Shown piece after piece: positions 36,165-49,245 of a stretch of 54,818 nt of DNA (position 1 is its first letter; the number at the start of each line of letters is the position of its first letter). A program made the translations under genes and the position numbers. The notes under the pieces are model-generated. The model ran no database searches, was not told the origin of the DNA, and saw nothing but the letters and a program-made list of their open reading frames with translations. The DNA is from a virus (lineage: Duplodnaviria > Caudoviricetes), in the IMG/VR virus record IMGVR_UViG_3300008113_010961, positions 1-54,818 of that record; one strand, given 5' to 3'.

Positions 36165-36536
36165 TTATTTTGCTTTTTCTTTTTTCTGTTGATCGAAGAA
36201 TTTATCCATCCTGTACCAAACATCTGTATTTTTGAGATCGATGTTGGTTGGCTGTTGTGGTGGGCCTCCCATGCCACCACCCAAACCTCCGCCCATATCA
36301 GGTGCTCCGCCTCCAAGTGGTGGCGCTCCTCCTCCCATTCCTCCTCCGGGTGGCGCTGCTCCTAATCCTCCTGCATCCCCACCAATTCCACCTGCTGGCA
36401 ATGGTGGTGCGCCTCCCATTCCACCTGCATCTCCTCCTGTTGGAGGTGCCGGTGCTGCTCCTGCTGCTCCCCCTGCTGGGGCTGCGTCGGCCTCTGTAAT
36501 TAGGCTTCTTACAAAATTCTTAAATGTAATCATCAT
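36165..36536 (-). CDS. Gly/Pro/Met-rich low-complexity protein (candidate internal head protein)
   Basis: TFKNFVRSLITE leader then GGAPP/GGGM repeats; TATAAATA upstream. Confidence 0.7.
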   Translation of the reverse strand: MMITFKNFVRSLITEADAAPAGGAAGAAPAPPTGGDAGGMGGAPPLPAGGIGGDAGGLGAAPPGGGMGGGAPPLGGGAPDMGGGLGGGMGGPPQQPTNIDLKNTDVWYRMDKFFDQQKKEKAK

Positions 36537-37297: not shown

Positions 37298-38710
37298 ATG
37301 GCAAAAATAATTTTAAAAAACGATATTAGCCAAATTGTAACCACTAATGAAACTTTGGCTAAGTTTCTTTACGACAACTTGCGTTTTCGTGACCGCAATT
37401 ATTTTCATAATCGTGCCTATCGTCAGCGTATCTGGGATGGTTTTACAAACTTCTTTAACAAAAATAATGGCAAATTTCTAACTGGCCTGTTGCCAGAAAT
37501 ACTTATGGCTTGCAAAGCACACAAAGAAGAAGTTCAAATCTTAGATCAAAGAACAAAGGTTGACTTTGCGGTAAATGAAATAAATTCCACATTCTTGCAT
37601 TCTTGCACACCGGCTGGATCGCCTGTCATTACTCTTGAAGACTACCAAGTCGATTTGGTTAATTCTGCTATAAAAAATAAACGTGGAGTTATATTTGCTC
37701 CAACCAGCGCTGGCAAATCGTTGACCATGCTTTCAATTTTGAAATGCTTACCTGCCGGTACTAAAACTCTGGTTTTGCAAAACCGTAAAACCTTGGCTAT
37801 TCAGAACTATGAAGAATACACGAAATGGGGTCTGCATAACGTTGGAAGGATTTGGGGTGGAGTTGACGAACCAAATGACATCACAGTCAGTACTGTGCAA
37901 TCTATATCCAAAGCCGCTGATCTCTTGCCAGAGGTTGAAGTTCTTTTAGTCGATGAAATTCACGACATGATGAGTACCGCCCCCAAAGCCGTTTACCGCA
38001 TGTTAAAGAAATGCAGTGTTAGAATAGCAGTTAGTGCTACACCATTTAAATTTGGTGATAGCGACAAAATTCAAAAGTTTTATGTTAAAGGTTTTTTTGG
38101 CCCTCCTTTTAAAATTAAATCAACTGAGACTGGAATTGTTACAACACAGGAATTGCAAAACAGAGGAAGACTCTCAAAAAGCCGTTGCATATTCCACAAA
38201 ATTAACAGTCCTGACCTCGAATATGAATTGTATCAAGATGCCGTAAACCTTGGTATCGTTGAAAACAACACTTTGCATGAAAAGGTTGTTGAATTAGCTA
38301 CTGCCCAATCTGGCAGAACATTGATTCTTGTGGATCGTCTGGCACATGGCGATACACTGCAAAGTCTAATTCCAAATGCTCTCTGGGTTCAAGGCAAAGA
38401 CAATGATGAAACTCGCAAACAAGTAATTGAGCAACTACAAAAATCAGAAAATTGTATTGCAATTGCTACTCAAGGTATATTTAATACCGGAATTAACGTA
38501 TTTGTTCACACGTTAATTAATGCTGCGGGCGGCCAAGCTGATCATCAAATTATCCAAAGAATGGGTAGAGGTTTAAGAACTGCAAAGGACAAAGAAGAGT
38601 TGCTTTATATTGATTTCATATTTGAAACCAATCCTTATTTGCACAAACACAGTATGAAAAGAGTAAAGATTTTGCAGAAACAAGGGCATTCAATTGAAAT
38701 ATTAGATTAA
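37298..38710 (+). CDS. uvsW: Superfamily 2 DNA helicase (T4 UvsW-like)
   Basis: WDG N-terminal motif, DYQ, APTSAGKS, DEIH, SAT, TGIN, QRMGRGLR; GAGG RBS before ATG 37298. Confidence 0.85.
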   Translation: MAKIILKNDISQIVTTNETLAKFLYDNLRFRDRNYFHNRAYRQRIWDGFTNFFNKNNGKFLTGLLPEILMACKAHKEEVQILDQRTKVDFAVNEINSTFLHSCTPAGSPVITLEDYQVDLVNSAIKNKRGVIFAPTSAGKSLTMLSILKCLPAGTKTLVLQNRKTLAIQNYEEYTKWGLHNVGRIWGGVDEPNDITVSTVQSISKAADLLPEVEVLLVDEIHDMMSTAPKAVYRMLKKCSVRIAVSATPFKFGDSDKIQKFYVKGFFGPPFKIKSTETGIVTTQELQNRGRLSKSRCIFHKINSPDLEYELYQDAVNLGIVENNTLHEKVVELATAQSGRTLILVDRLAHGDTLQSLIPNALWVQGKDNDETRKQVIEQLQKSENCIAIATQGIFNTGINVFVHTLINAAGGQADHQIIQRMGRGLRTAKDKEELLYIDFIFETNPYLHKHSMKRVKILQKQGHSIEILD

Positions 38711-39039
38711 GGATTGCCAGTCATGATGTCCACAATGTCTCCAATTGTGCCATCAATTTCATCTACAGAGTCCAATTGCTTCCTTCTTGGATCGTTTTCT
38801 GGCAATTCCTTGTAAAACTGCAGATTTTTAATGGTGTTTTTTACACCCATTTGCATTGAAGTGCCTTTAGGACCGGGAACTTCTTGGGTTTCAAGATTCC
38901 TTAAAGGCTGCTTTCTCAGTTCGCCACGGTTGCCTATTCCGCCTAAATCAAATGCACTACGAAGAATATCAAGATAATTATTTTCTTGATTCTGTATGGC
39001 TTCTTGGAGCCAGCTCGAAAATTCTAGTTTAACTGCCAT
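38707..39039 (-). CDS. Hypothetical protein (candidate internal head protein)
   Basis: EFSSWLQE leader; TAAATA 5 nt upstream of the ATG. Confidence 0.6.
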   Translation of the reverse strand: MAVKLEFSSWLQEAIQNQENNYLDILRSAFDLGGIGNRGELRKQPLRNLETQEVPGPKGTSMQMGVKNTIKNLQFYKELPENDPRRKQLDSVDEIDGTIGDIVDIMTGNP

Positions 39040-39071: not shown

Positions 39072-39887
39072 ATGAACTATAAAATGCTTTTTAAAGAATG
39101 GCTTGGAAAAAGTCCAGAAGTTAAGTATGGATTTAGGCCAAATGTCACTGCTATTCAAACTCCATTCTATGAGCTTGAACCCATCGAAGTATTTGACGTT
39201 GAAAAATGCCTTAATGCTTTGGCTGATACTGGAAGATTGGATGGCAAAGAAGCAAATGATATATGGAAGACTCAATTGTCATACGGACATGGACTAGGAA
39301 AGATTACAGTAACCAGCTCTCCATACGGATCTTATAAATTTGTAATACGAAGATATGTTCCAGATGCAGTAGGTAATCTAATTCCTTTGTGCAGACTTGT
39401 AATACCGCTAACAAATGATTACAACCACAGGGGTCCAAATGATCCCGGTGAGGAAATTCTTGCAGTCAAAATTTATGATAAACTAAAACAAATCATGTCT
39501 GAGCCTTATCCGGCTCCAAACAAGAATTATCAGAATAAATTTGCAAAATTAGTTTACAACTTCAGCAAGGCAGTCAAACTAAAACACCCAGCTATTATGG
39601 TTTATCAAGGTACTGTAAAGCTAGATGATAACAACTATATCATTAGTTTTACATTTAAAGGTTATGGAAATGGTGTTCCTAATTCACTGAAAGCCGAAGA
39701 ATTCCTTATCAACTGGCAATATCTTCCAGAAGTAGGGCTCTTACGATGCTGGGGATATGATGTTGTATCGCCTGTTAAACAAAGAGAGTGGCAGCCAGCA
39801 CCAAGCGAATGGGATGAATATTTTTCTCCAAACCAGCCAGAAAAACAAATCATGAGCTGTGTTATGGAAGCATTCATGACATATTAG
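39072..39887 (+). CDS. Hypothetical protein
   Basis: 271-aa ORF; LFKEWL leader. Confidence 0.7.
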   Translation: MNYKMLFKEWLGKSPEVKYGFRPNVTAIQTPFYELEPIEVFDVEKCLNALADTGRLDGKEANDIWKTQLSYGHGLGKITVTSSPYGSYKFVIRRYVPDAVGNLIPLCRLVIPLTNDYNHRGPNDPGEEILAVKIYDKLKQIMSEPYPAPNKNYQNKFAKLVYNFSKAVKLKHPAIMVYQGTVKLDDNNYIISFTFKGYGNGVPNSLKAEEFLINWQYLPEVGLLRCWGYDVVSPVKQREWQPAPSEWDEYFSPNQPEKQIMSCVMEAFMTY

Positions 39888-40563
39888 TCTCAAATGCAAA
39901 TAAATCTTGATAAATCTTTTTAGCATTATCCACGTTAAATTTATCAAAACTTACCGCATCCGTTCTTTCATACAGATCTTTTTTAATTTCTTCTGGCAAT
40001 TTTTTAACCCATTCCGACAAGTAAAAGTAAATTGGCTTTATTTTTTTTAAAATAGCAGCAGTTCTAACCTTGCTACTTTTTGAATTGAATGTCTCAAATG
40101 TTAAATTAGCACCGCAAATATTTTGTATTTCCTTTAAACTAACTATCAAATCATATTCCATGTCTGAATCTTGCATGGAATAAGTTTGTTTTGTTAACTT
40201 ATTGGCTTCTGCTACTAATTTCTTCCAATAGAACCAACGTCTTTCTGCTGGCTCTCCTGTTAAAATAACAGGCTCAACTAACACAGGTAAACCTTGTTGT
40301 TGTATCTTTTTAAACAGTGTTAATTGTGCTTTGATGAAATATTCGTATTCCTCTATGGTTTTGAATTGTCTTTCTTTAATTAACTTGAGAATTGTTCTAA
40401 AGAGAACACTTTTGCGTAAATTTTTTAATTGCGGTATTTTTGAATGCATGTATGTAGGGAAAAGCGTTCTTGAGTGTTTAATCCAGACGCAACATATTCT
40501 GTATGCCGTATCCTCTGGGCCTTCAAAATTAAATTTCATGCTTAGTTCTGGATCGTAATTCAT
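39874..40563 (-). CDS. Hypothetical helical protein
   Basis: Likely start ATG 40563 (MNYDPEL...); the upstream extension in the ORF track runs into the structured non-coding element. Confidence 0.65.
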   Translation of the reverse strand: MNYDPELSMKFNFEGPEDTAYRICCVWIKHSRTLFPTYMHSKIPQLKNLRKSVLFRTILKLIKERQFKTIEEYEYFIKAQLTLFKKIQQQGLPVLVEPVILTGEPAERRWFYWKKLVAEANKLTKQTYSMQDSDMEYDLIVSLKEIQNICGANLTFETFNSKSSKVRTAAILKKIKPIYFYLSEWVKKLPEEIKKDLYERTDAVSFDKFNVDNAKKIYQDLFAFETNMS

Positions 40564-40620
40564 AAGTTTAATCCTAGTCAGTTTATTTATGTTTGACAAT
40601 GGCGGAAGCACTAAAATATT

Positions 40621-41065
40621 GCATGCATGAGTAAGGCGAATTAACGGCCTGAAAGTACATCGAGTTTCCTTCATAAAACTTGTGTTTTAACTGAACACCT
40701 GTGGAAATAAGGAAATGGAAAAACCATGCTGGGTCTTAATGATCAAGAATTCTTAACCTAGTCGGTTATTTATTCAGATCACTTAGGATGAACCCCTAGG
40801 GTACCCACGAGATCCTTAGTACTGGCAACAACAACAAGGTGTGCCTTATTCCAATCCAATTTAGGCGGGTAGTTCCATACAAGAATGAGTATTACTCAAG
40901 GTGGTATGGACAGGAATTAAGGTTAAGAGTTGTAAACAGTTAAGTAAGTCATTCGAGTATCTTAAAGACCCTTTAAACACAGTAGATAACACTTAAATTA
41001 TCTATTGTTTTTTAAAACGGCTCTTTAAGAACCCGCCCCTCGGTCTGTAGTGGTGATTAAAGAAT
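40621..41065 (+). ncRNA. Candidate large structured non-coding RNA (unidentified class)
   Basis: Essentially ORF-free gap with many complementary segments: 40748-59/40920-31, 40960-41030 long hairpin, 40781-89/40812-20, 40874-80/40904-10, 40665-71/40709-15, pseudoknot 40864-70/41031-37; G-U pairs favour the plus strand. Confidence 0.5.
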
Positions 41066-41076
41066 TCTCATATCTC

Positions 41077-41104
41077 TTGCAATTTGTTATATTTGTGGTA
41101 GAAT
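41077..41104 (+). promoter_or_regulatory. Sigma70-type promoter with extended -10
   Basis: TTGCAA-16 bp-TAGAAT with TG one base upstream of the -10 box. Confidence 0.5.
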
Positions 41105-41129
41105 GTTAGAATTAATGCAAGGAGATTAC

Positions 41130-42434
41130 ATGCAATTGCAAGACATAACAACTAAGTTGTTTGATTTCTTCAAGCAAACAAAAGTTATCTTCGTTACATG
41201 GGATCCAAAATCCTTTGATTCTACCACTCTAGCTAAGTTACAGGTGCGCATAAAATTTGAAAATTCAAAAGGCCTCTCTGTTACATTTCCGCTGAACGCC
41301 AGCAATTGTTTGCTATTTACAAATATTCTTGAAAAAATGGATCAGGCAAAGCGAACTGTATTTGTCGGTCATGATTTCAAAATACTTTTTACTTTTTTCC
41401 GTAGGCTTAACAACAAACTTTTGGACATAGCTAACGTATTTGATTTAGAATGGTTTGAATCCTACTACAGCAAAGAAAGCTCTGTTGGCAACCTTGCACT
41501 TCAGGCCAAACACCTCAAAGAATGGCTTGGTAATGAAGAAGCACTCAAGACTTATTCCAACGTATTTTCAAAATTAATTGTTAAGACTTTGCCAGCAATA
41601 GAAAGCAATGGTCTGATTAACAACAACCTTGGGCTTATGGTTTTCCCGAACTTCGTTGTAGAAGGTCAGACTAACGGCAGATTATCTTGCATTTGTGAAT
41701 ACAAACGTTGTTACAACCCTCACAGCTTGTCTGATGATGAAAAGGCTGATCTGCATTTAACTAAGGAATCCGAAATGTTTGTTTGGTTTGATTACAACAA
41801 TATGGAAGTTAGTGTTCTGGCGGAATTGGCTGAAGATGACCAATTGAAAGAAATAATTACTAATCATCCGAAGCTAGTTTATGAAAAAATATTTGAAGCT
41901 GTCACAGGGACAACAAACACAGAAGCAAGAAAAATTGCCAAACAAATGTTCTTGCCATGCATCTATGGTCAAGGTGCTTCAGGCTTGGCCAAAAGCCTTG
42001 ATATAAGTCTGGACCAAGCAGCAATCTATTTGCACAACATGAGAAATAAGTTTTCAAAAAGTTTTGCATTTGTTGAGAATGCTCAAAAATTGGCAGAGGA
42101 AAACCAAGCAGTTTCTGACAGGTTTGGAAGGATCCGTAGGTTCCCTTCTGGCGACTCGTTTAAGGCTCGAAATTTCGCAATACAGGCACCTTCTGCCCTT
42201 CTTTGCCTCGAAGCCCTTGTGAACCTGCAAGAGGTCGCAGAATCGCTTTTTAAGGTCATGTTTACGGTACATGACGGGTATTGTATTTCTGGTGATAAGA
42301 GGAATTTGGAAGAGGCTTACAGAAAGGCAAAGACCGTTCTGGAAAAGCCCTCACGGTTTCTATCAGTAAAGTTGAACGTTTCAGCAAAACTAGGGAGAAA
42401 CTTAGCGAAAATGACATCCATAGGAAAAAGGTAG
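41130..42434 (+). CDS. polA: Family A DNA polymerase, reduced (no thumb, degenerate 3'-5' exonuclease)
   Basis: TNGRLS, motif A DYNNMEVSVLA, motif B RKIAKQMFLPCIYG, NFAIQ, motif C VHD; AAGGAG RBS before ATG 41130 (alternative start 41103). Confidence 0.8.
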   Translation: MQLQDITTKLFDFFKQTKVIFVTWDPKSFDSTTLAKLQVRIKFENSKGLSVTFPLNASNCLLFTNILEKMDQAKRTVFVGHDFKILFTFFRRLNNKLLDIANVFDLEWFESYYSKESSVGNLALQAKHLKEWLGNEEALKTYSNVFSKLIVKTLPAIESNGLINNNLGLMVFPNFVVEGQTNGRLSCICEYKRCYNPHSLSDDEKADLHLTKESEMFVWFDYNNMEVSVLAELAEDDQLKEIITNHPKLVYEKIFEAVTGTTNTEARKIAKQMFLPCIYGQGASGLAKSLDISLDQAAIYLHNMRNKFSKSFAFVENAQKLAEENQAVSDRFGRIRRFPSGDSFKARNFAIQAPSALLCLEALVNLQEVAESLFKVMFTVHDGYCISGDKRNLEEAYRKAKTVLEKPSRFLSVKLNVSAKLGRNLAKMTSIGKR

Positions 42435-42437
42435 ATT

Positions 42438-42998
42438 ATGTTATCAGTTTTTAAAAACTTTCCAGTAAGCAATGATGAGTATATCAAGCTAGATAAAAAA
42501 TTCGGACAGCTTTGTTATTATGCTTCTTGGCAACTTATCAGGAAAAACAGTGCTAATAATCACCAGTTTGATCTTGAGGATGTTTCACAAGAACTAATGG
42601 TTGCCGTGTTGAGGGCTGCTAGTTACTACAAAAGACAGGTGTATATTGACAGCAGTTTAACAGCGTTGCAGTCTGCAAAGTTAGATAAAACAAGCAAGTT
42701 TATTTTGAAGGAATTAGAAAACCTTTGGAAAAATAGAACTAGGCATGGTGCTAGCAGGCAGAAGTTTGGAGATTATCAGGAACAAATTCTAAAAGACTTT
42801 TGTAAAAAATTTCTCCCTGCTAATTTAATTCCGCCCGTTGATCGGCCATTAATTATGGAAACCAAATTTTTAACTTATTGCAAACAAATTTTATGGAATG
42901 CAACAAAGCATTTGGGTCGTAAAATTAGTAGAGAAAAGCCACTAAGAGCAGGTCAGGTTAGCTTGAGCGACCACGATTACTTAAGCTCGATTGAGTAG
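42438..42998 (+). CDS. Sigma-factor region 2-like protein
   Basis: DLEDVSQELMVAVLRAASYY and FLTYCKQILWN resemble sigma region 2 motifs separated by an insertion. Confidence 0.5.
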   Translation: MLSVFKNFPVSNDEYIKLDKKFGQLCYYASWQLIRKNSANNHQFDLEDVSQELMVAVLRAASYYKRQVYIDSSLTALQSAKLDKTSKFILKELENLWKNRTRHGASRQKFGDYQEQILKDFCKKFLPANLIPPVDRPLIMETKFLTYCKQILWNATKHLGRKISREKPLRAGQVSLSDHDYLSSIE

Positions 42999-43000
42999 AT

Positions 43001-43073
43001 TGGAGAGTTAAGGAGTTGAACCTTATGTACAGCTTTATAAGAACTGCCCTCAAAACCGTCGAGGACACTCTCC
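43001..43073 (-). tRNA. tRNA-Ile(UAU)
   Basis: Cloverleaf: acceptor GGAGAGT/ACTCTCC, D-stem CCTC/GAGG, anticodon stem CAGTT/AGCTG with loop CT-TAT-AA, T-arm TAAGG-TTCAACT-CCTTA, discriminator A; CCA not encoded. Confidence 0.85.
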
Positions 43074-43076
43074 ATT

Positions 43077-43150
43077 TGGGCTTCCTCGGACTTGAACCGA
43101 GAACCGAACGATTATGAGTCGTTTGCTCTAACCGATTGAGCTAGAAGCCC
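43077..43150 (-). tRNA. tRNA with CAU anticodon, most likely tRNA-Ile2 (lysidine type)
   Basis: Acceptor GGGCTTC/GAAGCCC, D-arm GCTC/GAGC, anticodon arm AACGA-CTCATAA-TCGTT resembling bacterial Ile2 (ileX), TTCAAGT loop; lacks initiator-Met features. Confidence 0.9.
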
Positions 43151-43158
43151 TCGTAAAA

Positions 43159-43187
43159 ATAGTAACAAAAGTAAAATTGAAAAGCAA
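43159..43187 (-). promoter_or_regulatory. Sigma70-type promoter of the tRNA pair
   Basis: TTGCTT-17 bp-TACTAT with extended -10 TG, 8 nt upstream of the tRNA 5' end. Confidence 0.65.
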
Positions 43188-43315
43188 GAGGATTTTATCA
43201 TGCTATTCCGTTCATATTGTGTTTCATATTCAAGGGTATTTGCCTTGCAAATTTACAGTACACCGATTACAACATTGGGATTCAGTTTTTGCAATTGTTG
43301 GACTGGGAGAAAGAT

Positions 43316-45134: not shown

Positions 45135-46016
45135 ATGCCTAGTTGTATTTCTGTTTTTAGCAATGTGGATTTTATATACACAACTTTACCTCCATCTCAA
45201 GATGGGTTTAGTATAGCCATTGCACAGGCAACACCTACTCCAACTCCAGCGCCGACTACGCCGCCGACACCTACACCAAGTCCTTCGCCGAGCGAATCGC
45301 CAGCGCCTACAGCGTCACCAACAGCCACACCAGCATCAACTCCAAATCCGTCAGCTAGTGCAACGCCTGTTCCTACTGAGTCGCCAACGGCTACGCCTGC
45401 ACCTACAAATTCACCTACAGAAACACCTTCGCCATCACCGAGTGCGACACCAGCACCAACGCCGTCTCCGACATCGGCGGCGTTGTGTATTACTGTTGAC
45501 GGATCTACCAACAACTTTAGTACTGCACAATTATCAAGTCCTAATAATGGATTCAGTTTCTTCAATAATGTGATTGTTAATCCAACGCCTACTGTAACTC
45601 CAGTGCCGCCAACACCATCGCCTACACCGGCGGCTGGATTTAGCACTGATGCTTGTGCTCCAAGCAGCCCAACAGGTTATGGGTCAGGATTTACAATGTC
45701 GGTAACTTTCCAATCGGCAAATGCTGGAGACCCAACAAGCTTTGTTTGGTTCCAAATGGATACAACAGGAAGGATACTGCATATAGATAATGCTGTAGAT
45801 GTTGGGTTAGATAGTGCTGGATTGCAGAGAGCCGCTTACACAGGAAATGATGCAGGATGCCCGGGAGCAACTAATCCCATAGGTGTGCAGAATTTAAAAT
45901 ATAGCGACATGACAGGTGCTGGTAAGAACTTGGCCGGTGTAACTTTGGTTGGATTAGCTTACACTAGTTCTACTGTTGGTGGTGGCCCCGGGCCTTATAC
46001 TGTTTGGTTTGAATAA
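45135..46016 (+). CDS. Pro/Thr/Ser-rich putative virion surface protein
   Basis: GGAG RBS; PTPTP/SPTP stalks separating small beta-rich domains. Confidence 0.7.
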   Translation: MPSCISVFSNVDFIYTTLPPSQDGFSIAIAQATPTPTPAPTTPPTPTPSPSPSESPAPTASPTATPASTPNPSASATPVPTESPTATPAPTNSPTETPSPSPSATPAPTPSPTSAALCITVDGSTNNFSTAQLSSPNNGFSFFNNVIVNPTPTVTPVPPTPSPTPAAGFSTDACAPSSPTGYGSGFTMSVTFQSANAGDPTSFVWFQMDTTGRILHIDNAVDVGLDSAGLQRAAYTGNDAGCPGATNPIGVQNLKYSDMTGAGKNLAGVTLVGLAYTSSTVGGGPGPYTVWFE

Positions 46017-46030
46017 AATAAAGAGGAAAA

Positions 46031-46702
46031 ATGGCAACAGATCAAGTAAAGTTCAATATGGTATGTGACGGATGTGTTGAAATAGCAGTCAATGTGGCTG
46101 CTGGTTCTCCTACCGTCACGGTTGTTGATACTAATGGTACTTTGGGTACTGTTACTGCTGGAAATAGCCAGACTTTCAATGATTATCTTGTAAACGGCAA
46201 TTCAGCTACTGTTTCAATACCAGACGGAAGTACTGTAGCATCGGGTAAAATAACAGGAACAATAAAGTATACAGTTTGTCCCACACCGACTCCTGCACCA
46301 CCAACGCCAAGTCCTACGATAGCGCCTACACCATCGCCAACGCCCGGAGGCGGACCATTAATTAGTGGTGGCGGAAGTTGTTTCGTCCCAGAGCCGTGGC
46401 CTTCCTCCTATGGTTCTGGCAATCAATATACTGTCACGTTTACTGGTGATAGTAATATCCAGTCGTTCCAGCTGCCGAGTGATTCTTATTGGTTATTCGC
46501 AAATAATCCTAATTGCATAGTGTTTATAAATGGTTGCGATCAGTTTGTATCGGATTTCATGGCAAGCGGATTGGGCAATGTATCTGGTGCTGTGAATGGA
46601 GCGTTCTATCTTGGTAACACTCCCGCTTTGACAACATTGGCTTTGAATGTTTCTGGCGCACCAAGCTATCCGCAATCAATACAAATGTGGGCAAATACAT
46701 AA
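46031..46702 (+). CDS. Pro/Thr-linker putative virion surface protein
   Basis: GAGG RBS; beta domain + PTPTP linker + C-terminal domain; N-terminal domain resembles that of 46711. Confidence 0.7.
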   Translation: MATDQVKFNMVCDGCVEIAVNVAAGSPTVTVVDTNGTLGTVTAGNSQTFNDYLVNGNSATVSIPDGSTVASGKITGTIKYTVCPTPTPAPPTPSPTIAPTPSPTPGGGPLISGGGSCFVPEPWPSSYGSGNQYTVTFTGDSNIQSFQLPSDSYWLFANNPNCIVFINGCDQFVSDFMASGLGNVSGAVNGAFYLGNTPALTTLALNVSGAPSYPQSIQMWANT

Positions 46703-46710
46703 GGTAAACT

Positions 46711-49245
46711 ATGAGCAATACAACTACTAACGTCCCTGAGTTTTTTGCATTATCAACACAGCCCCAGATTGTATTCAATGTGGATTGTGCTGTTGGTACT
46801 GCTAAGGCTGTTATTACTGTTGCTGGTGGTTCTGCTTCTTCGGCGTATGTACTTAAGAACGGCGTATCTCAAGGAACAGTTTTTGCAGGTAGTCCTCCTC
46901 AAACAATAAGTTTTGCTGTAGTAAGTGGTGATAAGGTAACAATCGAGACGGACGCTGGTGTTTATGTATCGCCAAATGATGTTACGGGAACAGTAGAATT
47001 CATTGCTCCAGCAACTCCTACACCGACAGAAAGCCCAACACCTACCGCCACTGAATCTCCTACTCCAAGTCCCTCACCAAGTCAGAGTCCATCTCCAACT
47101 CCTTCGCCTAGTCCCAGTGAGTCACCGATACCGACTGGAACACCATTCCCAACAGGAATGGCAACACCAACAGAAACACCAAGTCCTACAGTTAGTCCTA
47201 ATCCAACTGCTACACCAACGCCTAGTCCATCGGGAAGCCCATCACCAACGCCAAGTCCTTCACCTAGTGAATCTCCTAGTCCGACACCTAGTGAATCACC
47301 AAGCCCAACGCCTTCACCTAGTCCCAGTGAGTCACCGATACCGACTGGAACACCGTTCCCAACAGGAATGGCAACACCAACAGAGACGCCAAGCCCTACA
47401 GTTAGTCCTAGTCCAACTGCTACACCAACGCCAAGTCCTTCACCTAGTGAATCTCCTAGCCCGACACCTAGTGAATCACCAAGCCCAACGCCTTCTCCTA
47501 GTCCTAGTGAATCACCTATACCAACTGGAACACCTTTTCCTACTGGAATGGCAACACCAACAGAAACACCAAGTCCTACAGTTAGTCCTAATCCAACACC
47601 TACTCCTACACCTAGTAGTAGTACTAGTCCTACTCCAAGTCCTAGTCCATCAAATAGTCCGTCACCTACACCGAGTGCATCGCCGTCACCCAGTCCTAGT
47701 AGCACACCAGCTCCTACAGGGACACCTTTCCCTACTGGAATGGCAACACCAACAGAAACACCAAGTCCTACAGTCAGTCCCAATCCAACTGCTACACCAA
47801 CGCCGAGTCCATCAGAAAGTCCGACGCCGTCACCAACACCATCGGATTCACCGAGTCCGACTCCAAGTGAGAGTCCAACACCGACACCTAGCGAGAGCCC
47901 GACACCAACTCCATCAGAAAGTCCTACTCCCTCTCCCTCTGAGAGTCCAACACCGACACCTAGCGAGAGCCCAAGTCCTACTCCGAGTCCAAGTCCATCG
48001 GAAAGTCCGTCGCCTACTCCTAGCGACAGTCCAAGTCCTACACCGTCACCAACCCCCAGTGACAGTCCTAGTCCAACGCCAAGTCCGACACCGAGCGAAT
48101 CGCCAAGTCCAACTCCTTCTCCGAGTCCTTCACCGGGAATACTTCCAATAAGTCCTCCGACTTTAGGCGATACGACTGTTAACATTTCCTTTAATCAATT
48201 GTTGACAACAAGTGGCGGGACATCTCCTTACACATTCAGCATCAATAGTGGATCTTTGCCTGCTGGTGTAACTTTGGATTCAAGTGGTTTGCTAAGTGGA
48301 ACACCAAATGTAGATGGAACATTCAGTTTCAATGTTCATGTCGTTGATTCCGGCGCACCAACAGCAACAGGAGATCAGCCCTACACATGGACAATTAATC
48401 CGCCTGTTAGCGTAGAGCCACCAACACTAAATGCAATGGTGCAAGGCATCACATTTATGGGTGGGTGCTACTCAGTAGGCGGAACTCCTGCTTACACGTA
48501 TTCTGTTGTTGGCGGAGCTTTACCTGCTGGATTAACTCTAGATGTTGGCGGAACGATTAATGGAGCGCCTACAGTAGTTGGCCCTTACTCCGTAACCATT
48601 CAGTCAACGGATTCAGTGGGAGCTACAGGAACTAGAACTTACACAGGAGAAGTAGTTCCAGAAGACATTGAAGTCCAAGCATCAACTGATTTTGCTGTAG
48701 CTGCTATAGCCATGCCTTATCAAGGTTGGGCTTTTGGAAATATGGGCACAGGCATGGGCAGCCCCAGCATTAGATTTGTTCAAATAAGTGGTTCTACACA
48801 AAGTGTAAGAATTACTTTAAGGAATAACTCTACCCAGACATTCTTGGTAAATGTAAATAGCATAAATTATGCGGTTTACGCCTCTGAGAATTTCGACAAG
48901 ACATTTGCTGTACCACAGAATGGAATCATGACAGTTGGCGCATTGACAGGAGGATTCTTCCCTGCAAGTTCTGTTACAGGAGCGGTTTATGTAAATGCAC
49001 CTGCAGATTGTGCTTACAGGCTAAAACTGACACCAACCGTAAGAGCAGTAGAAGGCGACGAAGGCAGTTTGGATACTTCTGTAATCAATGGCAGAAGCAT
49101 GCAAAGAACTGGCTATTTGACCATTACAGAAAATGTAACTCAGGTAAAAGTAATGGAATTACCAGATGGTAGCTGCATAAATACACAAATACAGCAATTG
49201 CCTGATGTAATTCCTTTGATTACTGATGGTTATCCCCAAGGTTAA
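46711..49245 (+). CDS. Mucin-like PST-repeat protein with two Ig-like (He_PIG-type) domains
   Basis: About 375 aa of Pro/Ser/Thr repeats; [32 protein letters not shown] and [21 protein letters not shown] Ig repeats; C-terminus shared with 49256. Confidence 0.8.
47003..48135 (+). repeat. Intragenic SP/TP tandem repeats including 4 copies of [23 protein letters not shown]
   Basis: GGAATGGCAACACCAACAGA recurs at 47155, 47365, 47545 and 47737 (spacings 210, 180, 192 bp). Confidence 0.85.

Follow-up and report, generated by a model that had tools for sequence, protein, structure and literature searches.

Why does a large structured RNA lie directly ahead of the gene for a DNA polymerase that lacks its thumb, and does the RNA belong to the enzyme or to the control of its gene? 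The question is raised by a locus in IMG/VR virus record IMGVR_UViG_3300008113_010961 (Duplodnaviria; Caudoviricetes), a 54,818-base stretch that we analyzed at its full length and call the window. Here an RNA, a shortened family-A DNA polymerase (PolA) and a small helical protein (the partner) follow one another on the plus strand. The three parts form a vertically inherited cassette of a huge freshwater phage lineage, in which the universal companion of the thumbless PolA is the 186-amino-acid (aa) partner and not the RNA. Their positions in the window are as follows.

40627–41050, plus strand: structured non-coding RNA of about 425 nucleotides (nt), identified by covariation, an excess of G-U pairs and fold z; ends inferred from conservation
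41130–42434, plus strand: thumbless family-A DNA polymerase, 434 aa, identified by PF00476, an AlphaFold (AF2) model and invariant motif residues
42438–42998, plus strand: 186-aa helical partner with weak likeness to sigma domain 2, identified by tblastn, AF2 and structure matches

The non-coding gap and its RNA

The window has a CheckV completeness of ~10%, and its genes include those for a tail sheath, ribonucleotide reductase, SbcC-like and SbcD-like proteins and a superfamily 2 (SF2) helicase. Within the GenBank phage collection, its PolA is best matched by a 595-kb uncultured phage without annotation; IMG/VR contigs related to the window are up to 572 kb long, and near-identical DNA occurs in sequencing runs from 14 studies labeled mainly as freshwater and lake metagenomes. 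Given these large relatives and run labels, we take the window to be a fragment of a huge freshwater phage. A nucleotide search of the 3.1-kb region against the phage collection returned no match.

The extent of the non-coding gap depends on the starts of the genes at its two ends. The PolA open reading frame (ORF) as listed spans 41103–42434, but 76 of 77 homologue clusters are 416–484 aa long and an AAGGAG at 41119–41124 stands ahead of ATG 41130, so the gene is 41130–42434. The divergent ORF on the other side is listed as 39874–40674. In alignment with locus L004, its start (MNYDP/MKYDP) is kept at 40563, and the stretch 40600–40674 is conserved at the nucleotide but not the codon level; by this comparison, the divergent gene probably starts at ATG 40563 rather than at 40674. 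With these two starts, the gap measures ~566 nt and not 428 nt.

The element in the gap aligned in blocks (nhmmer, MAFFT) with loci whose PolA is 76% (L004) or 41–45% (L007–L010, L012–L014) identical to that of the window. RNAalifold placed 38 pairs in nine helices across 8 related sequences, with compensatory change in 17 of the 38 pairs, and two of the nine, nested one inside the other, are long-range helices that enclose most of the RNA. Paired cells made up 87.8% of the total compared to 76.9% in shuffled alignments, and 17 pairs had changed on both sides compared to 9.1; neither value was reached in 500 shuffles. The covariation score was 0.423 against 0.214 for the shuffles, and moving the partners by 1–3 columns lowered pairing to 47.7% or less. 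Because the counted structure was derived from the same 8-sequence alignment, these pairing figures are somewhat inflated; the sequences are also related to one another. When folded singly, all 8 sequences had the inner closing helix in their minimum-energy structure. G-U cells outnumbered A-C cells by 34 to 9, so the folded strand is the plus strand, the same as that of PolA. With its ends set by conservation (40627–41050), the window RNA folded with z = −3.13, and 1 of 100 shuffles folded as well; a first cut at 40675–41102 had given z = −1.0 on the plus strand and −2.15 on the minus strand. The first-pass annotation had placed a structured element upstream of PolA and co-oriented with it, and covariation, G-U excess and conserved position uphold that claim.

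Three covariance models were used for further searches: R1, built from the 8 near sequences; R2, which adds L015, L017 and L062; and R3, built from 17 sequences. R3 scores sequence only, because RNAalifold returned no pairs on the 17-sequence MAFFT alignment. The parts of the RNA and the promoter-like sites on either side of it, all on the plus strand, are listed here.

40593–40620, plus strand: sigma-70-type promoter-like site, TTGACA, 16 nt, AATATT, 10 of 12 matches
40628–40655, plus strand: conserved 5′ hairpin of the RNA; alignment columns 125–128/138–141 are 100% paired, 2 of 4 pairs compensatory
40702–40880, plus strand: RNA core, comprising an A-rich/ACC strand, a hairpin with a conserved ACGRGA loop and an AGGU..GCC hairpin; from model R1 and the alignment
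40864–40870, plus strand: 5′ strand of the inner long-range helix, pairing with 41031–41037
40981–41013, plus strand: terminator-like hairpin followed by six T, inside the RNA, in 8 near-clade sequences
41031–41043, plus strand: conserved C-rich 3′ motif, which holds the 3′ strands of both long-range helices; by nhmmer
41077–41104, plus strand: second promoter-like site, in the interval between RNA and PolA, 9 of 12 matches with TG; similar in L004 only

R1 scored the core (40702–40880) at 80.4 bits, the window being a training row, and the core blocks are the same in 17 aligned loci. At the inner long-range helix, helices 8 and 9 are 91–96% paired, with 3 of 7 pairs compensatory. The internal hairpin of the near clade carries a T-run of six to eight and lies upstream of the 3′ strands of the closing helices; the distant loci showed no comparable U-run. 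In minimum-energy folds of those distant loci, the long-range partners were inconsistent. A search for a 7-nt partner complementary to the 3′ strand did not discriminate real from shuffled controls, although it returned perfect partners at 175–250 nt in L016, L053, L065, L068 and L080.

A scan of the window with Rfam 15, whose families include GOLLD, ROOL, RNase P, tmRNA, group I and II introns and riboswitches, matched only tRNA at gathering score, and all 4227 models at E up to 10 gave four chance-level matches over 40450–41200 (10–20 bits against cut-offs of 35–88). ARAGORN found no tmRNA in the window. We dropped group I intron, RNase P RNA and tmRNA as identities, since no model matched and a promoter, not an exon, precedes the element. 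The plus-strand segment 40627–41050 is a real structured RNA of an apparently undescribed family.

In all 8 near-clade loci, a sigma-70-like site with 8–11 of 12 matches ends 10–18 nt before the conserved 5′ motif; none was found before the RNA in 9 distant-clade loci. The distant-clade RNAs (L053, L064, L068, L082 and others) instead have a CTTGT...GAAACTTT-like string ~20–40 nt before the 5′ motif, a sequence pattern that points to a different promoter class or a different host group. No terminator is conserved downstream of the 3′ strands of the RNA. At 5–20 nt past these strands, a GATT(GT)AAAG..GAATT-like motif recurs in the window (41050–41075) and in L064, L065, L080, L082 and L083; it may be a tail of the RNA, a phage-specific promoter or a binding site. 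The site at 41077–41104, which the first-pass annotation had read as PolA's own promoter, does exist, but the region holds 11 promoter-like sites compared to 15.5 ± 3.6 in shuffles. Because sites of this kind are fewer than in shuffles, this one is not evidence for a promoter. On the expression side, a lake metatranscriptome contained one 160-nt contig that is 100% identical to 40647–40806, the sole piece on 39800–43200; its depth is low, it carries no strand information and it may be carried-over DNA, so we treat it as a weak hint. A second RNA run placed nothing on this stretch; neither run speaks for an absence of transcripts.

A polymerase without a thumb and its constant partner

PolA scored 94.8 bits against PF00476 (cut-off 34.3), with a match confined to profile positions 148–379 of 381, and its profile matched Bst and Taq Pol I in the PDB at E about 5e-27. 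Position 164 of a 33-member PolA profile aligned to residue 299 of the Bst large-fragment chain and position 172 to residue 268 of the KlenTaq chain, both of which we take to lie just past the thumb. The AlphaFold model (predicted local distance difference test score, pLDDT, 93.3) consists of an alpha/beta N-terminal domain (1–133), one helix (136–157), and then palm and fingers. It superimposed on KlenTaq 297–832 with Z 32.5 and a root-mean-square deviation of 2.8 Å over 387–390 residues, leaving ~146 of the 536 KlenTaq residues with no counterpart; a full-length relative has ~190 extra residues ahead of the part it has in common with PolA. The Pfam match, PDB alignment, AF2 model and KlenTaq superposition agree with one another and with the earlier call of a thumbless enzyme: the thumb subdomain is absent, and in the model a single helix stands in its place.

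The catalytic motifs are intact. Across 33 sequences, motifs A, B and C show no variation at D221, E226, K271, G280, H381 and D382, and R267 and F274 are conserved in at least 90%. The steric-gate glutamate (E226) is thus kept, and motif C reads HDG, not HDE. Ahead of residue 155 there is no invariant column, and D30 and D105 alone reach 90% conservation. A functional proofreading site is therefore doubtful; we call the N-terminal domain exonuclease-like.

Relatives of this phage encode another polymerase. PF07733 (DnaE-type) matched 4 of the 5 large genomes and 2 of the 4 fragments that carry the RNA, in every case as a gene divided over two frames, and no family-B polymerase was found in any of the 5 large genomes. 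Since relatives encode a DnaE-type polymerase and no family-B polymerase, PolA is probably accessory, and it would act as a low-processivity enzyme beside the DnaE-type replicase. The DnaE-type frames in G002–G007 (for example G003:C1:214221-230531) are ~455–475 aa and 830–980 aa long and lie 5–16 kb apart. In one clade that lacks the RNA, a conserved gene of ~390 aa ends at or overlaps the PolA start (L002:4826-5989, L051:2829-4004, L067:2316-3569). Its C-terminus has 'IHDS' and R...K...F..FG strings that recall polymerase motifs C and B; the 391-aa product had no Pfam match in L051, L002 and L067, and its profile similarity to PolA was not significant.

The partner ORF begins 3 nt past the PolA stop. 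In the polymerase-side set, which comprises 80 IMG/VR loci, one GenBank locus and the window (82 distinct records), tblastn found the partner in 81, directly after PolA in 77. It is displaced by ~1–4 kb in L041, L042, L061 and L071 and was not found by tblastn within 4 kb in L081. Partner identity is 41–83% where PolA identity is 26–76%, and the mean column identity over 45 partner sequences is 63%; judged by these alignments, the partner is more conserved than PolA itself.

The first-pass annotation had called this ORF sigma-region-2-like. Its position held, and the likeness proved weak: the partner scored 16.5 bits against PF04542 (sigma region 2), below the cut-off of 24, and only 7 of 45 family members matched PF04542 at E up to 0.1. 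The best PHROG link was phrog_351 ('RNA polymerase sigma factor'), matched by 4 of 45 members at E 0.0077. No sigma region-4 family was present among the 25 listed of 26 families that matched the 45 members at E up to 0.1. The AF2 model is all-helical (pLDDT 86.6). In a structure search of the model against representative chains (VIA), ~21 of the top 50 matches were sigma domain 2, with Z 5.5–7.3 over 68–100 residues, which is within the unspecific helical range, and a Foldseek search of the model against the PDB gave nothing at E ≤ 0.001. A TFIIA fragment, the best profile-against-PDB match (E 0.28), was judged to be chance. A predicted complex of PolA and partner scored 0.01, which speaks neither for nor against binding. 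We therefore describe the partner as weakly sigma-2-like in its predicted structure and do not call it a sigma factor. The T4 late sigma factor gp55 has ~185 aa, and the partner resembles it in being small, in having only a sigma-domain-2-like part and in lying among replication and recombination genes; no PHROG or Pfam match links the two.

The pairing of a shortened PolA with a small obligatory protein has a parallel in CCPol-MP of staphylococcal SCC elements, which is described as a truncated family-A polymerase with a small partner that has priming activity (PMC10201439). As portrayed in that account, most of the exonuclease domain is missing from CCPol and a beta-barrel serves as its partner, whereas here the thumb is missing, an exonuclease-like domain is kept and the partner is all-helical. 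The classes named in the relevant parts of the same 2023 reclassification of PolA include 'broken thumb' clusters and exonuclease-truncated CCPols with the small partner MP, and no thumbless class is among them (PMC10201439). A literature search for a thumbless polymerase found no paper. This subfamily of family-A DNA polymerases appears to be undescribed, as does the sigma-2-like protein that accompanies it.

Where the RNA occurs and what surrounds it

Taken together, R1, R2 and R3 detected the core of the RNA in 35 of 80 records with sequence upstream of PolA. The first-pass annotation had asked whether thumbless PolA homologues always carry an upstream RNA; by this count they do not. All core matches were on the plus strand upstream of PolA, with none elsewhere at E<0.01, and matches to the final-iteration profile begin 371–547 nt before the PolA start. 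Many RNA-positive records are training rows or near-copies of them; matches on non-training rows were L057 and L060 (R2) and L008, L010, L017, L062, L070 and L075 (R3). The 3′ motif gave 30 nhmmer matches at E<1, all on the plus strand and 87–175 nt before the PolA start, nothing below E=4 elsewhere in ~750 kb, and added L016, L019 and L021 to the core-positive loci. Strings resembling the 3′ motif were also seen by eye, and left uncounted, in L018, L023, L020, L050, L052, L063, L073 and L081. Iterating nhmmer did not extend the set past 29 loci (core) or 27–30 (3′ motif), and strict regular expressions, written for the 3′ motif and for the core with its loop and hairpin, failed to pick up most of the distant copies.

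A scan from the RNA side gave the same association. Two DNA patterns run over IMG/VR produced 7 and 6 confirmed matches, all in PolA contigs, and every one (7/7 and 6/6) was upstream of PolA and partner. L117 and L120, which are outside the polymerase set, were found through these RNA patterns and have PolA and partner 530–575 nt downstream. In a metagenome collection, 6 of 12 pattern matches strongly fit the profile, and PolA and partner followed in 4/4 of the RNA matches with enough downstream DNA. The linkage of RNA, reduced PolA and sigma-like gene in a conserved co-oriented cassette, first proposed from the window alone, therefore holds in all matches that could be assessed.

We mapped the RNA onto a quick maximum-likelihood tree of 69 distinct PolA proteins. 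RNA was found in 31 rows, the 3′ motif only in 2 and neither in 35; 1 row had no upstream data. These labels require 4–5 changes on the tree compared to ~23 when shuffled. In the clade that contains the window (12 rows), all rows are RNA-positive where data exist, whereas the RNA was detected in 0 of 18 rows of another clade with 99% support. In L002, L051 and L067/L069, PolA directly adjoins a protein gene, so the RNA has no space there. Five genomes of 381–572 kb, of which three are rated 100% complete, contain a single PF00476 match apiece, in an open frame of 408–447 aa. An R3 search of these whole genomes at E up to 1 gave no match anywhere, although R3, as a sequence profile, could miss diverged copies. 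Three RNA-negative loci of one clade (L037, L039, L044) have a conserved non-coding sequence of their own with hairpins upstream of PolA, which could be a diverged or a different RNA. The RNA is thus a frequent, ancient and dispensable third element, fixed in place and direction, and the constant pair is PolA and partner.

The cassette is bounded by the following features.

39874–40563, minus strand: divergent conserved gene, 229 aa from its conserved start; the open frame extends to 40674
43000–43150, minus strand: tRNA-Ile(TAT) and tRNA-Met, back to back just past the partner, by ARAGORN, with an Rfam tRNA match of 70 bits

The divergent gene, noted earlier as an orphan, is real and conserved: 70 of 84 loci have a tblastn match to it ahead of PolA on the other strand, and it had no Pfam, PHROG or usable ESM Atlas match. 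A 271-aa gene (39072–39887, plus strand) lies near PolA in many loci at 20–45% identity, and at 85–100% in the closest relatives; a 110-aa gene (38707–39039, minus strand) is conserved in the closest relatives only. Neither had a family match. The helicase, the 271-aa gene and the divergent gene keep their order with the cassette in the near clade. The nearby UvsW and SbcCD of the first-pass annotation correspond to the SF2 helicase, SbcC-like and SbcD-like genes. In the interval from SbcD to the helicase block, a 123-aa ORF (36165–36536, minus strand) consists mostly of Gly/Pro/Ala repeats and has a mirror ORF on the other strand. Farther downstream, three successive genes (45135–49245, plus strand) contain long Pro/Thr/Ser linker repeats, and at 47–48 kb the GC content rises to 0.53 with a strong negative GC skew. 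Cumulative GC skew has its minimum at ~37–40 kb, where mostly minus-strand genes give way to mostly plus-strand genes, and a second local minimum at 6–7 kb.

What the RNA may do

Because PolA also occurs without the RNA, the RNA is unlikely to be a missing part of the enzyme and is more likely a regulator or a separate RNA. We tentatively favor, at somewhat less than even confidence, the view that it is a structured 5′ leader of the PolA–partner operon that acts in cis on expression. In this scheme, the RNA would be transcribed from the sole conserved upstream promoter on the PolA strand, together with the genes that follow, and would set the amount or timing of PolA and partner in cis; a stable RNA fragment might be left after the leader is transcribed. 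The neighboring gene is divergent, so no read-through enters the RNA from upstream. Loss of the RNA in a few clusters on the tree, with retention of PolA, is a pattern typical of regulatory elements. A precedent for control at this position is the translational operator of T4 gene 43, which consists of one short hairpin at the ribosome-binding site. Like that operator, the RNA lies ahead of a phage DNA polymerase gene whose expression it could control; unlike it, the RNA is ~425 nt long and ends ~90 nt before the start codon.

Several observations weigh against a leader. At 360–460 nt and at least nine helices, the RNA to our knowledge exceeds the known cis-regulators in size. Its sequence blocks remain recognizable where PolA identity is only 26–32%, and such conservation is more usual for ribozymes or ribonucleoprotein (RNP) scaffolds. 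Separate transcription of PolA from the promoter-like site at 41077–41104 is possible, and the near-clade hairpin and T-run could end transcripts ahead of the 3′ strands of the RNA. No ligand, protein binding or alternative expression-platform fold was identified for the RNA, and the only RNA contig has low depth, is unstranded and is possibly carried-over DNA. Part of the absence of RNA from half of the loci may reflect undetected diverged copies.

One alternative, which we consider unlikely, is that the RNA is a stable trans-acting molecule in an RNP with the thumbless PolA, the partner or both, where it would hold the DNA or serve as scaffold, primer or template. Genes for guide, template and scaffold RNAs often adjoin that of their protein, and every confirmed RNA match with enough downstream sequence does precede PolA and partner. 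The very high sequence conservation of loops and junctions over deep divergence, the lack of a DNA-gripping thumb in PolA, the RNA's own promoter in the near clade and the presence of the RNA alone of the cassette in a metatranscriptome would all suit such a particle. Retrons and defense-associated reverse transcriptases (DRT) likewise have a structured non-coding RNA directly upstream of a polymerase gene. Here, however, the enzyme is a family-A DNA polymerase with the steric-gate glutamate E226 and not a reverse transcriptase, and a Pfam scan of ten neighboring window proteins found no reverse-transcriptase family. PolA and partner also lack a detectable RNA in 35 of 69 PolA rows, including the 18-row clade, and five large genomes searched whole gave no RNA match. 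PolA length is similar whatever the RNA status (76 of 77 clusters at 416–484 aa), and no RNA-binding domain was recognized. We regard as more doubtful still the stricter form of this idea, in which the RNA is a dedicated cofactor of PolA, partner or both that holds, primes or templates DNA in an RNP polymerase and has been lost, replaced or diverged in other clades. The earlier proposal that the RNA replaces the thumb fits poorly, within detection limits, with the RNA-negative 18-row clade and large genomes.

We give a similarly small chance to an independent ornate non-coding RNA whose function is unrelated to PolA and whose adjacency merely reflects inherited gene order. GOLLD and ROOL are RNAs of this kind: they measure several hundred nt, have numerous helices as well as conserved junctions, and occur close to tRNA genes in phage DNA from lakes. 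So far as these general features go, our RNA is like them in size, helices, conserved junctions, origin in lake phage DNA and nearby tRNA genes; it differs in having no Rfam match at E up to 10 and in having a fixed partner gene downstream. Its size, helix number and conserved junctions, its own promoter and its loss from whole clades that keep PolA are what one might see in such a case, and in the near clade the synteny of the other block genes alone can explain the adjacency. In distant clades with changed neighbors, however, orientation and narrow spacing relative to PolA are kept, and no copy of the RNA was found away from PolA.

It is improbable that the locus is a transcription-primed replication origin at which a transcript or R-loop is extended as a primer by the adjacent PolA. 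ColE1 RNA II and the T4 origins are transcription-primed, and the RNA resembles these systems as a folded transcript of several hundred nt upstream of the site from which a family-A polymerase would begin. The promoter faces the PolA gene, a UvsW-like helicase and SbcCD are nearby, and the cumulative GC-skew minimum falls at the switch in gene direction. That minimum was all that the GC-skew analysis suggested by the first-pass annotation yielded for an origin; it cannot be separated from the change in transcription direction, the skew has a further local minimum at 6–7 kb, and the window is only ~10% of the genome. Covariation and many G-U pairs point to selection on an RNA fold and not merely on a DNA site, and relatives have a DnaE-type replicase. 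The conserved 3′ tract is C-rich on the transcript, an unfavorable polarity for a stable R-loop and opposite to the G-rich RNA expected from ColE1 RNA II or the T4 R-loop origins.

Least probable is that the conservation reflects protein coding or a signal in the DNA itself, for example a group of binding sites. On paper, the divergent gene's long ORF covers the first 48 nt of the element, and a 43-aa minus-strand ORF lies at 40861–40992, but the start codon of the homologues excludes the ORF overlap, indels of arbitrary length separate the conserved blocks, and compensatory change in 17 of 38 pairs and a strand-specific G-U excess mark an RNA.

The RNA appears to represent an undescribed large, covarying family of huge phages that no Rfam model recognizes. 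If it regulates the operon, it would rank with the largest cis-acting leaders on record; should it bind the enzyme, the two would form a polymerase RNP of a new kind. In either case, the cassette is compact, expressible and testable, and it could show how a polymerase functions when the subdomain that grips DNA is missing and what role large RNAs have in phages.

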